From contig VEQI01000001.1 in NCBI GenBank assembly GCA_018883305.1, forward strand, positions 1 to 58,411: DNA of 58,411 bases, in the 5' to 3' direction. Source of the stretch: Limnohabitans sp. GTDB taxonomy: Bacteria; Pseudomonadota; Gammaproteobacteria; Burkholderiales; Burkholderiaceae_C. Shown in pieces: positions 40,596 through 45,568 of this stretch. How positions within the stretch are numbered: position 1 is the first letter of the stretch; each line of letters opens with the position of its first letter. The translations under genes were made by a program, and so were the position numbers. A model generated the notes under the pieces. The model did no database searches and was not told where the DNA came from. It saw only the letters and a list, made by a program, of their open reading frames with translations.

Positions 40596-41048
40596 ATGAC
40601 ACCCCCTTCACCGCTGTCCGCTGCGCCCACCCGTTGGAGGAACTTGATGCCTGATGAGGCCTTGCCTTTGATCGACGCCCAGAAACTCCGTCACCAGGCT
40701 GACCTGGCGCCACCCGAACAGTGCGTCTGCGTTCTGAAAGTGTGCCAGGGATGGGAAAGTGTCAGCGAAGACCGCTGGCCTGCCGCGCACATGCACCTCT
40801 TGGGAACGCTGCGACAGCCCTTGCCCGAAGGCCAGACGGAACCCACCTTTGAGGAGTTCCATCCGCAAGGCACGCGCTATGAATCACCTCTGGCGCCCAT
40901 TGCTCTGGCGTATTTTCCATTCAATCGTTGTGACGTGCACACATGCAGCCGGTGTGGATGTACCGCGTTGAAATACACGGAATATGGTGGCTATTATGTG
41001 GATCATCGCGTGCGGTTGGTGAGGTCGGGCTTGATCGTGGAAGGCTGA
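40596..41048 (+). CDS. Hypothetical Cys-rich protein, possible Zn-binding
   Basis: CxC..C..GWES and FPFNRCDVHTCSRCG...YTEYGGYYVD. It fills the gap upstream of arfB. Start is 40596 or 40647. Confidence 0.7.
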   Translation: MTPPSPLSAAPTRWRNLMPDEALPLIDAQKLRHQADLAPPEQCVCVLKVCQGWESVSEDRWPAAHMHLLGTLRQPLPEGQTEPTFEEFHPQGTRYESPLAPIALAYFPFNRCDVHTCSRCGCTALKYTEYGGYYVDHRVRLVRSGLIVEG

Positions 41049-41087
41049 CACCGTCGCTGCGTGGCGCCACCTCCCACCTCCTTGACC

Positions 41088-41489
41088 ATGAACCGCCTGC
41101 GCATCATCCCCACAGAAGTGGATCTCACGGCCATCCGTGCGCAAGGTCCGGGTGGGCAAAACGTGAACAAGGTGTCCAGCGCCATCCAGCTACGCTTTGA
41201 CGTGCGCACCTCCAGCCTGCCCGAGGACATCAAGCAACGCTGGTTGCAAGCCACTGACAACCGGCTCACGCCGGAAGGTGTACTGCTCATCAAGGCCCAG
41301 CGTTACCGCACGCAAGAAGCCAATCGGCAAGACGCCTGGGCGCGCCTGCATGAATTGCTGGCTCGATTTGAGCGCGCGCCCACGCCTCGCAAGCCCACCC
41401 GGCCCACGCGGGGCTCAGTGCAGCGGCGGCTAGAAAGCAAGCGGCTGCACAGCCACCTGAAAGCCCGTCGACGGCCTTCAGACGACTGA
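41088..41489 (+). CDS. arfB: Alternative ribosome-rescue peptidyl-tRNA hydrolase ArfB
   Basis: RAQGPGGQNVNKVSSA, RTQEANR and a basic tail PRKPTRPTRGS..RRLESK. Confidence 0.95.
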   Translation: MNRLRIIPTEVDLTAIRAQGPGGQNVNKVSSAIQLRFDVRTSSLPEDIKQRWLQATDNRLTPEGVLLIKAQRYRTQEANRQDAWARLHELLARFERAPTPRKPTRPTRGSVQRRLESKRLHSHLKARRRPSDD

Positions 41490-41598: not shown

Positions 41599-42423
41599 AT
41601 GGACGATCTACTCAAGAAATATGGGGGGCTACCCAACCTCAGAAAGCACCTCAAGCTTTTTCATGAAAAGGTGTGCGAGGAAAAGGGTGTGAAGCACTAT
41701 TTCTTTGGCATCCAGCCAGACCTGCTGATTGCAGACCAGGTGAACTTCCGCTCCCTGCTGATGCGCAAGCTCGATCACTTCTACCGCGAGACCCCGCCAC
41801 AGACCGCTCAGCCCACCATTCGCGTCAAACCCGCTGTCTTCGAAGACGTTCGAAAATTGCTGGAGCGTCAGCTCAAGCTCATGGGCGTGAACTGGCGTGA
41901 AATCCCCCGCATGGCTTGTCATATCCTGCCGGTATTGGAAGAAACTCGCGCCCGTGCAGCTGACTTGACCAAAACCTCGGTCACCAGCGACCTGATCAAC
42001 CTGGAATCGATTGACGCCCTGTTGAAGTCGAAAAGCATCAACACCAAGATGCTTGCCAATGGAGAAATGCACATTCTCAAGAGTGACGGCATTGCCTACC
42101 CCTTCTTCCTGCAACTCAAGCCGGCGGAGAAACAAATCGTCCTGGTTGGTCGTGGCTACGCGTTCCAAAGCGTGACGGATGCCGAGCTGGCCGCCATTCA
42201 GGATGGGCTCTCCAAACGTTGGACCTTCATGCCCTTTCAGATCAAACGTGACGGCGAAGGCCGCTTCATCGAAACCCAGCATGTGGCTGATTACTCGGGT
42301 GGCGAGTTGCCCACCCGCCTGTTCTTCACCTTGATCAAAGAGTTTTCCTGGCGCTTTGACGAAGTCATGAAGCAGGACAAAGATGACCGATTGATCAACC
42401 TGGTGGCCGACAAGGCGGCCTGA
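41599..42423 (+). CDS. Degenerate truncated-globin-like domain fused to a YbjN-like domain
   Basis: The N-terminal ~115 aa follow the group 1 2/2-globin pattern (YGG, FH, YF.G, L...QV.F, Y, F..V...L...L...GV....I), with Gln at the F8 position. The C-terminal alpha/beta pattern resembles YbjN/T3SS-chaperone proteins. Confidence 0.65.
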   Translation: MDDLLKKYGGLPNLRKHLKLFHEKVCEEKGVKHYFFGIQPDLLIADQVNFRSLLMRKLDHFYRETPPQTAQPTIRVKPAVFEDVRKLLERQLKLMGVNWREIPRMACHILPVLEETRARAADLTKTSVTSDLINLESIDALLKSKSINTKMLANGEMHILKSDGIAYPFFLQLKPAEKQIVLVGRGYAFQSVTDAELAAIQDGLSKRWTFMPFQIKRDGEGRFIETQHVADYSGGELPTRLFFTLIKEFSWRFDEVMKQDKDDRLINLVADKAA

Positions 42424-42432
42424 GAGACACCG

Positions 42433-42726
42433 ATGAAACGTCTGCCCCTTGCCATCCTCTTCACTGGGTTGCTCATGCTGGCGGGCGCGACGACAGCGGC
42501 TGAGCGCGTGGCCTGCCCCGAAGGACTGAAATGGACCAACGAGGGCTTTTGCAAGGTGGAGCTGGACAGCAAAATGAACACCTGTCCGCAACGCAGCAAA
42601 ATGGCCAAGCCCCGCGTGACCGGCCCTCTCATTTGCCGCGCCAATGGTGACTGCCCCGATGGCACCAGTCCCAACAGTGACGGCTACTGTGTGCCTCCCA
42701 AAGAGCCCAAAAAGAAAAAGGGTTGA
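42433..42726 (+). CDS. Small secreted six-cysteine protein
   Basis: MKR, a hydrophobic core and a small-residue cleavage region (TTAA), then three CP...C units and a KKKKG tail. Starts 9 bp after the upstream stop. Confidence 0.75.
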   Translation: MKRLPLAILFTGLLMLAGATTAAERVACPEGLKWTNEGFCKVELDSKMNTCPQRSKMAKPRVTGPLICRANGDCPDGTSPNSDGYCVPPKEPKKKKG

Positions 42727-42733
42727 GCGGGTA

Positions 42734-43576
42734 TTACAGCCGTTCGGCGTGAATGAGGGCCCCGCCCAGAACGCCGACCTGGTACAGCCCCACGAAGTGC
42801 GCATAGGCCTGGTCGTAGCGCTCATAGTGCTCACGCCCCAAACGTTCCACCGTTTGGGCCTGGAGTGACTGATACATGGCATGACGCTCACGCAGAATGC
42901 GCGTCCACTCTTCGCTCAAGTCCAGCACATGCACCATCCGCATGCCATGGGTCTGCAGCCAGCCGGCGTAGTCATCCACCGAAGCAATCTCGGAAAAGCG
43001 CATGCCGTCAAACAAGCGGCGCGCGTCCTCTTGCGGGAGCGTCTGGCGGCGCAGAATGTCCGAGAACACCAGACGTCCGCCGGGCCGCAGCACTCGCGCG
43101 CACTCACTCACCAGTTGTGCCTTGTGGGGAATGTGTGCAAATGCCTCCTGGCCGATGGCCAGTGTGAAGCTGGCTGCCTTGAACGGCATGGCCAGCGCGT
43201 TGCCCTCCACAAACTGCACGCGGTCTGACAGACCGGCCACCGCCGTCAGTTCCGTGGCGCCTTGCACCCTGCTGCGGGTCAGATCCAGACCCGTGACGCG
43301 GCAACCGGTTTTCCAGGCCAGGTAACGCGCCGGCCCACCCATGCCACTGCACACGTCCAGCACTTCGTCCTGAGCCTGCACCCCGGCTTGCGCCATCAGG
43401 CGATCCACCGCCGCCGTACCCCCGTAGTGGTCCTGGTCGTGGTGTTGCAGCACCTCCTCGGTGATCTCCTGGGGCGTCACCCCACGAGCGGCCACAGCAG
43501 CCAGGATCTGCTGCGCGCTGATGGGATGGAAATCGTAAAAGTGTTCGACGGCTTGCAGGCGTGGATCAGGGTTCAT
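42734..43576 (-). CDS. Class I SAM-dependent methyltransferase (sarcosine/dimethylglycine or sterol/tocopherol MT-like)
   Basis: DQDHYGG, VLDVCSGMGGPAR, VTGLDLT and RVLRPGGRL. Confidence 0.9.
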   Translation of the reverse strand: MNPDPRLQAVEHFYDFHPISAQQILAAVAARGVTPQEITEEVLQHHDQDHYGGTAAVDRLMAQAGVQAQDEVLDVCSGMGGPARYLAWKTGCRVTGLDLTRSRVQGATELTAVAGLSDRVQFVEGNALAMPFKAASFTLAIGQEAFAHIPHKAQLVSECARVLRPGGRLVFSDILRRQTLPQEDARRLFDGMRFSEIASVDDYAGWLQTHGMRMVHVLDLSEEWTRILRERHAMYQSLQAQTVERLGREHYERYDQAYAHFVGLYQVGVLGGALIHAERL

Positions 43577-43710: not shown

Positions 43711-45486
43711 TCAGCCCCGAAGACGCGACTCCATCACGGCCATGACCTGCTGAAAACTCACCGGCTTGTGCAACACCGAAATATGGAGCTGTGCAAAATG
43801 GGTGATGTGCGAAGGCGAGGTGTCCGCCGTGACAATCAGCGCCGGGATTTCCTGATTGAACGCTTCACGCAGTTGGCGGATCATCTCGACACCGGTGGTG
43901 TTACGCAGCCGATAGTCACTGATGATGAAATCGATTGACCCGGCATCAAAGGCCGCCAGTTGCGCCTCCAGGGCCTGTGGCTCCTCCTCCACCACCATCA
44001 CTCTGGCGCCGCGGGCTGCCAGCGCGTGGCGGTAGGCCGCCAAAATAGCTTGGTCATCCTCGATGACAGCAATGATTTTGCCGCTGATAGACACCGCTTC
44101 TTGCCCCCCAGGCGTCGCACGGGCCTGCGTCAACTCGCCATCGGCCGCACCCAGCAACGGGTAGCGCGTCACCACGGTGAACGTGGTGCCTTGTCCCGGG
44201 ACGGATGCTGTTTGAATATCGGCCCCGATCAACTTGCACAAACGCCAGACGATGGACAGACCCAGACCCAGGCCATCATGAGAACCGCGCGTTTGATCCA
44301 CCCGGTAGAACTCTTCAAAGATGCGTTGCTGGTCTTGTTCGGAAATGCCGCAGCCGGTGTCAGCAACCCGTACGGCCAGGCATCCTTGTCGATCCTCGAA
44401 GGTCACGGACACCTGACCGCTGTCGGTGTAGTGAATGGCGTTGTCCATGAGATTGAGCAGAATCTGGCGCAACAATTTCTCATCGCCCAGCACAGAGCCG
44501 TGCATGCCCGACATGTGCAGCTGCAACTGCTTGTTGTTCGCCAGGGGCTTGGCAATTTCCCGCAGGGACGTGCTCAATGTTTCAACGGAAAAGGCGTGAT
44601 TCTCTGGTTCATAGCTGTGGCTGTCGAGTTTGCTGATGTTGAGCAAGGCCTCGAACATTTCATTCAATGTCACCACACTGTTCTTGACCTTCTGGATGGT
44701 GGCACGTTCACTGCAAGGAATGGCCTCCAGATTCAGCGAGTCCAAGTACATGTTCACGGCATACATGGGCTGACGCAGGTCATGACTGGCCGACGCAATG
44801 AAATTGGATTTGGCCACGTTGGCAGCAATGGACTCGTCACGCTCGGCCGCCAACTCCTTGAACAATTTTTCGTTGCGCAGTCGCAGACGCACCGAGTCTT
44901 CAAAGGTCTGCGAAAAATTGCGTGAGATCTTCACGACATAGATGAACAGAATGGAAATGCCGATGGAAAAGGGCCACGGGAAAATTTCTCGTGGCCAGAA
45001 AGCGGTCGAGATGGCTGGCACCATGATGGGAATGGTGAAGCTGTAAAACGTCGGCCAGTGCACGCAATAGCCAAACATGCTGTTGAACATGCCGCCAGCT
45101 GTGACGTACAGATAAATCATGCGGTTGACCGTGGTCAGGTCAGGCACCAGCAAGATCCAACCCAGGCCCCAGCCCAGCCCGATCAGCCCCACGCCCAGGG
45201 TCACCACCTTCAGATTTTTCTGGGGATCGGTGATCTTGTCCTCTTCGTGTTCCAGCCTGGCCGTTGTCCAGGTGCGAATCACGGTGGCCGCCACCATGTA
45301 CGTCAGCCACAGTGCCAGCTTGAGCGGGTCGGCGTCATCGTAGAACAACAACAGCGCAAACAAGGGCGCGAAGATGTTCGCCACCGTCACGGAGCGAGCG
45401 GTACGAACGATGTAGGCTGACTTGAGGATCGCCACCTGCCGCTGGCTGGCCTGGTCAAATTCTGTCAGTGTCAAGTTGTCACGCAT
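43711..45486 (-). CDS. Membrane-bound hybrid sensor histidine kinase/receiver
   Basis: About 5-6 TM helices, H-box ASHDLRQP, N-box NLMDNA, DTGCGI and GLGLGL. Receiver motifs IEDD, SDYRL, TAD and KP. Confidence 0.94.
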   Translation of the reverse strand: MRDNLTLTEFDQASQRQVAILKSAYIVRTARSVTVANIFAPLFALLLFYDDADPLKLALWLTYMVAATVIRTWTTARLEHEEDKITDPQKNLKVVTLGVGLIGLGWGLGWILLVPDLTTVNRMIYLYVTAGGMFNSMFGYCVHWPTFYSFTIPIMVPAISTAFWPREIFPWPFSIGISILFIYVVKISRNFSQTFEDSVRLRLRNEKLFKELAAERDESIAANVAKSNFIASASHDLRQPMYAVNMYLDSLNLEAIPCSERATIQKVKNSVVTLNEMFEALLNISKLDSHSYEPENHAFSVETLSTSLREIAKPLANNKQLQLHMSGMHGSVLGDEKLLRQILLNLMDNAIHYTDSGQVSVTFEDRQGCLAVRVADTGCGISEQDQQRIFEEFYRVDQTRGSHDGLGLGLSIVWRLCKLIGADIQTASVPGQGTTFTVVTRYPLLGAADGELTQARATPGGQEAVSISGKIIAVIEDDQAILAAYRHALAARGARVMVVEEEPQALEAQLAAFDAGSIDFIISDYRLRNTTGVEMIRQLREAFNQEIPALIVTADTSPSHITHFAQLHISVLHKPVSFQQVMAVMESRLRG

Positions 45487-45568
45487 GGGCGGGGACTGTG
45501 GTTGGCAATCGCGCCATCGTATCCGCCCATGGGCCGGGGGATTGAACAAACACCCCGAGCCAGAAGGA

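Follow-up and report, generated by a model that had tools for sequence, protein, structure and literature searches.

A globin-YbjN protein family of Limnohabitans whose globin-derived domain lacks the heme-ligand histidine

Introduction

The proximal histidine, His F8, is a hallmark of globins (PMC7475203) and is reported to be conserved across truncated hemoglobins (PMC4439042). Known non-heme globins include RsbR, phycocyanin and photoglobin (PMC8717448), the N-terminal domain of MabR (PMC11617747) and a heme-free 'pseudoglobin' reported to serve as a bridge in syNOS (PMC12922734), and further cases have been reported (PMC7475203). Globin-coupled sensors of the HemAT and DosC type place an N-terminal globin before a long helix and a C-terminal domain; their globin is a heme-bearing 3/3 globin of the S family, and their outputs are enzymatic or chemotactic (PMC7475203). 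YbjN proteins (PF10722), described as both the most common and the least studied branch in their clan (PMC13466201), are reported to be dimers that work via protein-protein interaction, with the Rcs phosphorelay as a possible target of AmyR (PMC5398634). They have also been placed among peptide-binding chaperones, in an account whose available portion does not mention globins (PMC9503650).

Here we describe a protein that joins domains of these two kinds, encoded in a 58,411-nucleotide stretch of DNA (hereafter the window) from Limnohabitans sp. (assembly GCA_018883305.1, contig VEQI01000001.1, positions 1 to 58,411). It resembles group I truncated hemoglobins (PF01152; 3aq5, Paramecium 1uvy, Mycobacterium tuberculosis HbN 1idr and the cyanoglobins) in its 2/2 topology and in homology over 105 residues, with a common AB-corner Gly-Gly, B9 Phe, CD1, E11, pre-F Tyr and G-helix pattern. 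It differs from them in lacking His F8, in the predicted loss of the F helix, in an H helix that is four residues longer, in its fusion to YbjN and in scoring below the Pfam cut-off. Residues 126-268 have the fold of Escherichia coli YbjN (6vu7), Erwinia AmyR (5fr7) and Deinococcus DR1245 (4h5b) but, unlike stand-alone YbjN proteins, sit behind a globin-derived domain. The protein shares with the RsbR N-domain, phycocyanin, photoglobin, the syNOS pseudoglobin and the MabR N-domain a globin fold without heme histidines, which in those proteins acts in signalling or scaffolding; unlike them, it has a parent that is recognisably a 2/2 group I globin, and its output domain is YbjN. In layout it is similar to globin-coupled sensors, whereas its globin part is derived from the 2/2 group I. 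Our literature search, which reached few subscription papers, found no paper containing both 'truncated hemoglobin' and 'YbjN', no heme-free 2/2 family and no account of globin-YbjN proteins. Hade et al. 2017, reportedly a survey of multidomain truncated hemoglobins, could list such a fusion. Globin-YbjN proteins constitute a real, conserved and apparently undescribed family, in all likelihood of non-heme globins, with a new architecture.

Results

A two-domain ORF and its surroundings

The ORF (P0001) and the features discussed below are listed in Table 1. A first homologue search with P0001 returned 18 full-length or near full-length homologues with 42-99% identity. A profile search of 1.84 billion representatives returned 132 matches, 26 of them at E ≤ 1e-30, and its tail ran into conventional truncated hemoglobins plus a handful of YbjN-like proteins. 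Neither domain of P0001 matched any Pfam or NCBIfam model, and an Atlas search returned unnamed clusters only. Upstream, across a gap of 109 bp, lies a gene for an RF-1-domain protein (41061-41489). We detected no sigma-70-like promoter between positions 41300 and 42900, and the single terminator-like match in that region, inside the ORF, scored below the shuffle mean. A plasmid search gave no match for the gene. Contigs from four metatranscriptome studies span parts of the gene together with its neighbours, which is not proof of expression. A 420-aa ORF overlaps on the opposite strand (41629-42891); of the two frames, the forward one is that with homologues and a confident fold. Elsewhere in the window, a 150-aa Cys-containing ORF without a Pfam match (40596-41048, forward strand) precedes the RF-1-domain gene, and a hybrid histidine kinase with a membrane N-terminal part and a C-terminal receiver is encoded on the reverse strand (43711-45549); the GC fraction drops to 0.51-0.55 over part of the kinase gene.

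Table 1. Features of the globin-YbjN locus, in window coordinates
Feature	Position	Strand	Basis
Globin-YbjN ORF P0001, 274 aa, two domains	41599..42423	+	Translation without stops, homologues, AlphaFold2, fold search
Pseudoglobin domain, aa 1-122, from group I truncated hemoglobins	41599..41964	+	Profile searches, hhalign, model
His33, two residues before Phe CD1	41695..41697	+	Sole invariant His, 94/94
Asp46 at E10	41734..41736	+	Asp in 80/94 members; His in 57/81 globin-only matches
Gln68-Thr69-Ala70-Gln71, family motif replacing the F helix; Gln71 = F8	41800..41811	+	Alignments, model
Glu114-Glu115-Thr116-Arg117, end of H helix	41938..41949	+	93, 94, 68 and 93 of 94 members
YbjN / class I secretion-chaperone fold, aa 126-268	41974..42402	+	Fold search, alignment
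97-aa protein, six Cys, signal-peptide-like N-terminus (by eye)	42433..42726	+	9 bp 3' of the globin-YbjN gene

The N-terminal domain derives from group I truncated hemoglobins

The original prediction, made by eye, was that residues 1-115 follow the group I globin pattern. This is borne out by profile-profile alignment: hhalign pairs residues 2-105 without gaps with 47 canonical relatives that form the nearest canonical subfamily (99.5%, E = 2.8e-23), sets F21, F35, L43, Q47, Y62, F81, V84 and L88 at the predicted globin positions, and pairs Q71 with the invariant His of that subfamily (H78 of its member L011). Searched as a single sequence with phmmer against the PDB, the protein matches the Tetrahymena group I truncated hemoglobin 3aq5 (E = 0.0014), which family profiles find at E = 3.6e-9 and 3.4e-13; group I truncated hemoglobins were the only significant PDB matches of these searches. 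They were also the best globin matches in a fold search with the whole model (Z 8.9, rmsd 3.4 Å, 99 residues), so that profile and fold searches alike return the expected family for the N-domain. Identity to heme-bearing relatives is about 22-26%, and P0001 does not match PF01152, for which the best His-less member reaches 18.5 bits against a cut-off of 21. We conclude that the N-terminal 122 residues come from the group I truncated hemoglobins.

Loss of His F8

We counted residues in a joint alignment of 94 de-duplicated full-length members and 81 globin-only matches, the latter excluding five family fragments and twelve multi-repeat proteins. Helix positions (F8, B10, E10 and so on) are labelled after the usual globin scheme. 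His F8 is present in 0 of the 94 members and in 79 of the 81 globin-only matches, and the two exceptions (P0092 and P0133) sit inside the His-less branch, which has an SH-aLRT value of 100 in a quick tree built from 123 columns. The replacement of His F8 by Gln71, noticed from the sequence alone, is thus confirmed and extends to the whole family, in which the position holds Pro (50), Ile (11), Ser (7) or other residues. Only two of the 94 members have a His elsewhere in residues 63-76, and no His, Cys, Met or Tyr is conserved there; hence a ligand-switched heme, which the original prediction had allowed for, is disfavoured. H60 and H22 were rejected as replacement ligands, since these positions are His in only 21 and 20 of the 94 members, and H60 aligns ahead of the pre-F Tyr and not at F8.

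Other positions have also been rebuilt. Aspartate predominates at E10, where globin-only matches mostly have His, presumably the distal ligand of cyanoglobins. E15, hydrophobic in canonical globins, is mostly Arg, Ser, Met or Gly. The H helix carries a four-residue insertion relative to canonical globins, ahead of Glu114-Arg117. D122 (88 of 94) and Q68 (87 of 94) are strongly conserved, H108 less so (53 of 94). The most frequent Cys column, C26, holds Cys in 22 of 59 sequences, and no bilin-binding Cys of the phycocyanin type is conserved. Several globin-like residues are kept: Tyr B10 in 55 of the 94 members, Phe CD1 in 67, Gln E11 in 52 and the pre-F Tyr in 85. The invariant His33 is not peculiar to the family, occurring in 22 of 81 canonical-type matches that still use His F8. 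Two further traits singled out earlier fared less well. His22 at B10, in the Phe-His pair at B9-B10 of the window protein, is no special trait, being shared with 8 of the 81 globin-only matches. Of the proposed change from Gly-Gly to Arg-Lys in the EF loop, the loss of the first Gly stands (Arg or Pro in the His-less family), but the Lys is also canonical: the nearest canonical subfamily reads G-K-P, and Lys occurs in 31 of the 81 globin-only matches.

The predicted structure lacks an F helix

AlphaFold2 folded P0001 with 59 sequences at a pLDDT of 94.6 and a pTM of 0.90, which suggests two domains in a fixed mutual arrangement. In the model, residues 64-71 are coil, and a helix spanning 102-121 runs continuously into the second domain. 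Residues 2-112 match group I truncated hemoglobins with an rmsd of 3.0-3.4 Å over 97-100 residues (3aq5: 3.0 Å, 97 residues, TM 0.61). As a control, the canonical globin L011, of equal identity, was folded in the same way with 47 sequences. Its model has an F helix (74-78) and matches the same targets at 1.6-1.7 Å over 116-117 residues (TM 0.90); since their chain lengths differ, the two models cannot be compared by Z score. The control itself deviates by 3.3-3.9 Å from the heme-bearing cyanoglobins 2hz2 and 1mwb, so the 3-4 Å distortion speaks for loss of heme without proving it. In the His-less family, a conserved Gln-Thr-Ala loop is thus predicted to take the place of a lost F helix. The best 50 fold matches include no RsbR, phycocyanin or photoglobin, though a fold in common with these may exist.

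The C-terminal domain has a YbjN fold

The C-terminal 140 or so residues had been called YbjN-like, and their best structural matches are indeed E. coli YbjN (6vu7; Z 13.8, rmsd 2.8 Å, 133 residues) and AmyR (5fr7; Z 13.6), followed by DR1245 (11.3) and then secretion chaperones; the next entry with an unrelated name scored Z 11.3. This part aligns over its full length with stand-alone YbjN proteins. One member, P0047, passes the PF10722 cut-off (27.2 bits), P0026 matches weakly and P0001 not at all. Pro238, Arg240 and Phe249 are invariant or nearly so; Ala204 and Asn205, in the central helix through which YbjN homodimers form, are present in 48 and 39 of the 94 members.

Purifying selection and a narrow range

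Of 49 close pairs, which are not mutually independent, 35 gave a usable dS; the median dN/dS was 0.044 in the globin part and 0.062 in the YbjN part. Mean pairwise identity is 0.34 and 0.27, respectively, and in 85% of 4371 pairs the globin sequence is better conserved than the YbjN sequence. Matches occur in 88 of 139 genomes of the window's genus, four of which have only a globin-length match, leaving 84 genomes with the family and up to three paralogues in each. Paralogues that are about 20% identical still share the invariant residues. We found no full-length match in samples of 400, 400 and 399 genomes from outside the genus, drawn from its family, order and class; the family is thus almost confined to one bacterial genus. 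Named records are from Limnohabitans, Comamonadaceae, Burkholderiales and one 'uncultured Bordetella' MAG, and the DNA turns up in sequencing runs of aquatic, wastewater, estuary and groundwater metagenomes. Since one distant member was found in a marine Tara set, the true range may extend beyond the genus. Some members bear the automatic label 'truncated hemoglobin YjbI', which is probably a wrong functional call. One copy (L091; G896:C3:466631-467426) is split into two frames by a frameshift or an assembly error.

Gene neighbours

An OmpR-type regulator and a kinase lie directly upstream of the gene in 12 of 44 family loci. These proteins score best against heavy-metal CusR/CusS/CopR-type models, below the cut-off. 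The 12 loci belong to two distinct branches of the family tree and are kin rather than independent cases. The remaining 32 loci, the window's own included, have no sensor pair, and their neighbours are unrelated metabolic genes; the window's genome has a related pair on a different contig, C86, whose end truncates it. The linked kinase family is found in 71 of 138 genomes of the genus, mostly unlinked. That 18 of the 22 top kinase matches adjoin the family was set aside as circular, since the profile was built from adjacent kinases. Inspection by eye of the regions upstream of the 44 loci revealed no shared motif.

The gene for the 97-aa Cys-rich protein is likely co-transcribed with the globin-YbjN gene. 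A profile of this six-Cys family, built from copies that adjoin globin-YbjN genes, gave 19 matches, spread over 12 of the 139 genomes of the genus; 15 of these matches adjoin a globin-YbjN gene, which is often flanked by one on each side. An Atlas search with the 97-aa protein gave sub-threshold leads only. In a sister lineage the corresponding position is taken by another Cys-rich protein. A second Cys-rich family comprises small, secreted-looking proteins with Cys repeats (L077:6820-7119, L091:5594-5857, L095:5629-5940), and two members scanned against Pfam received no name. This family is weak evidence for a module, because it is mostly unlinked and has matches in as many as 105 of 138 genomes of the genus, frequently more than one per genome.

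Discussion

Sequence, tree and predicted structure support the proposal of a heme-less 2/2 globin joined to a protein-interaction domain. From sequence and model, we consider it very probable that the family does not bind heme in the canonical way. By analogy with YbjN proteins, we suggest that the protein is a heme-free adaptor or regulator that binds other proteins, likely in the cytoplasm, a reading that we put at slightly better than even; by the same modest preference, it would have no small ligand of its own. The two domains are predicted to form one rigid unit via the lengthened H helix. The YbjN domain would dimerise and grip client proteins, in the manner of YbjN/AmyR and the class I chaperones, and the pseudoglobin may have been kept as a docking surface that sets the choice of client through H33, E114, E115, R117 and D122, whose placement in the fold we infer. 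Signalling proteins would be the likeliest clients, for example the CusRS-like pair found ahead of the gene in two lineages. We propose an adaptor because YbjN proteins are reported as protein-protein interactors, AmyR perhaps acting on the Rcs phosphorelay. The pseudoglobin of syNOS provides a precedent for a heme-free globin that serves as a bridge (PMC12922734). The kept distal residues (B10, CD1, E11 and pre-F Tyr) count against a pure scaffold, which need not keep them, and the 32 of 44 loci without a sensor pair count against CusRS-like clients; direct action on such a pair seems unlikely.

A second, less probable reading, to which we give perhaps one chance in four, is a non-heme sensor in which the old pocket, or the cluster of His, Glu, Glu and Asp, would bind a polar ligand or a metal and the H helix would signal to YbjN. 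Where the pocket used to be, conserved residues are polar (D46 in 80 of 94 members, K57 in 81, Y62 in 85, Q68 in 87), and H33, E114, E115 and D122 are of types able to bind metal, but all of these could also be interface or folding contacts. The linked kinase and regulator are closest, below the cut-off, to the heavy-metal CusS/CopR models, but neighbours outside the two lineages have no common metabolic or metal theme. The nearest canonical globins occur in signalling-type fusions (with a receiver in L012 and a rubredoxin-like domain in L062), and known non-heme globins are reported to retain the pocket for another ligand (PMC8717448). The lack of an F helix in the model counts against a sensor. 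In a more specific and somewhat less likely form, a heme-free 2/2 globin with a rebuilt pocket would sense a metal or small polar ligand and signal through YbjN to a CusRS-like system, together with a small disulfide-rich exported protein. If true, this would be the first heme-free branch of 2/2 globins, and a new signalling module expanded in a freshwater genus.

Binding of heme in a non-canonical manner, loosely or through another ligand (H33, H108, a Tyr or a partner's His), with the protein acting as a buffer, carrier or sensor, is improbable. CD1 (Phe or Leu), E11, E14 and G5 are retained, and H33 is invariant and close to CD1. One natural fusion, P0027, also carries an intact truncated hemoglobin, followed by a low-complexity linker, in front of its His-less globin-YbjN unit. 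Yet residues 63-76 offer no conserved ligand, H108 and H60 are too variable, and the His at position 33 is also found in globins that use His F8. Asp at E10 would presumably face a heme propionate, a further point against this reading.

P0027 also invites the view, which we hold to be very improbable, that the family pairs with a heme-bearing relative and couples its O2 or NO state to YbjN clients. Among 34 genomes with a related globin-only gene, 30 also have the family, but 54 of 84 family-bearing genomes, many of them incomplete, show no such globin, the window's own genome, at 87% completeness, matches Bac_globin just once, with what looks to be a group II protein, and P0027 is a one-member cluster. 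Decay into a functionless globin remnant can practically be dismissed: Pfam recognises neither domain of P0001, but a dN/dS of about 0.04, residues that are invariant across paralogues about 20% identical and open frames without stops in 84 genomes contradict it.

For the preferred reading, an adaptor without heme, function is a proposal, and the narrow taxonomic range bounds its importance. With His F8 absent from every member, at about 22-26% identity to heme-bearing relatives, the family gives a near view of a globin's departure from heme chemistry and allows a residue-level comparison of parent and descendant. It also provides a small, well-folding handle on the little-studied YbjN proteins.

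Variant architectures and related globins

Some family members carry additional parts. In one lineage (L050:1489-3204, L056:1489-3114, L095:5995-7779; P0052, P0054, P0229) a coiled coil and the N-terminal domain of an IS5-type transposase (DUF772) stand in frame before the globin-YbjN unit; the DUF772 part is possibly a domesticated DNA-binding domain. P0049 and L094 have a C-terminal extension of about 100 aa. A search for fusions of 525-2000 aa found none, and was insensitive, since the profile search already held such proteins.

Intact group I truncated hemoglobins also occur in fusions of their own. In another family of the order, one is joined to a receiver domain (L012:1063-1851). Others, with His at B10, are joined to a rubredoxin-like CxxC...CxxC domain (L052:499-1047, L058:129-725, L059, L060, L061, L062:1300-1851), and globin-length matches that score like these fusions occur in 34 genomes of the genus. 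Each rubredoxin-like-globin gene is followed by a gene for a lone phage-integrase SAM-like domain without the catalytic domain.
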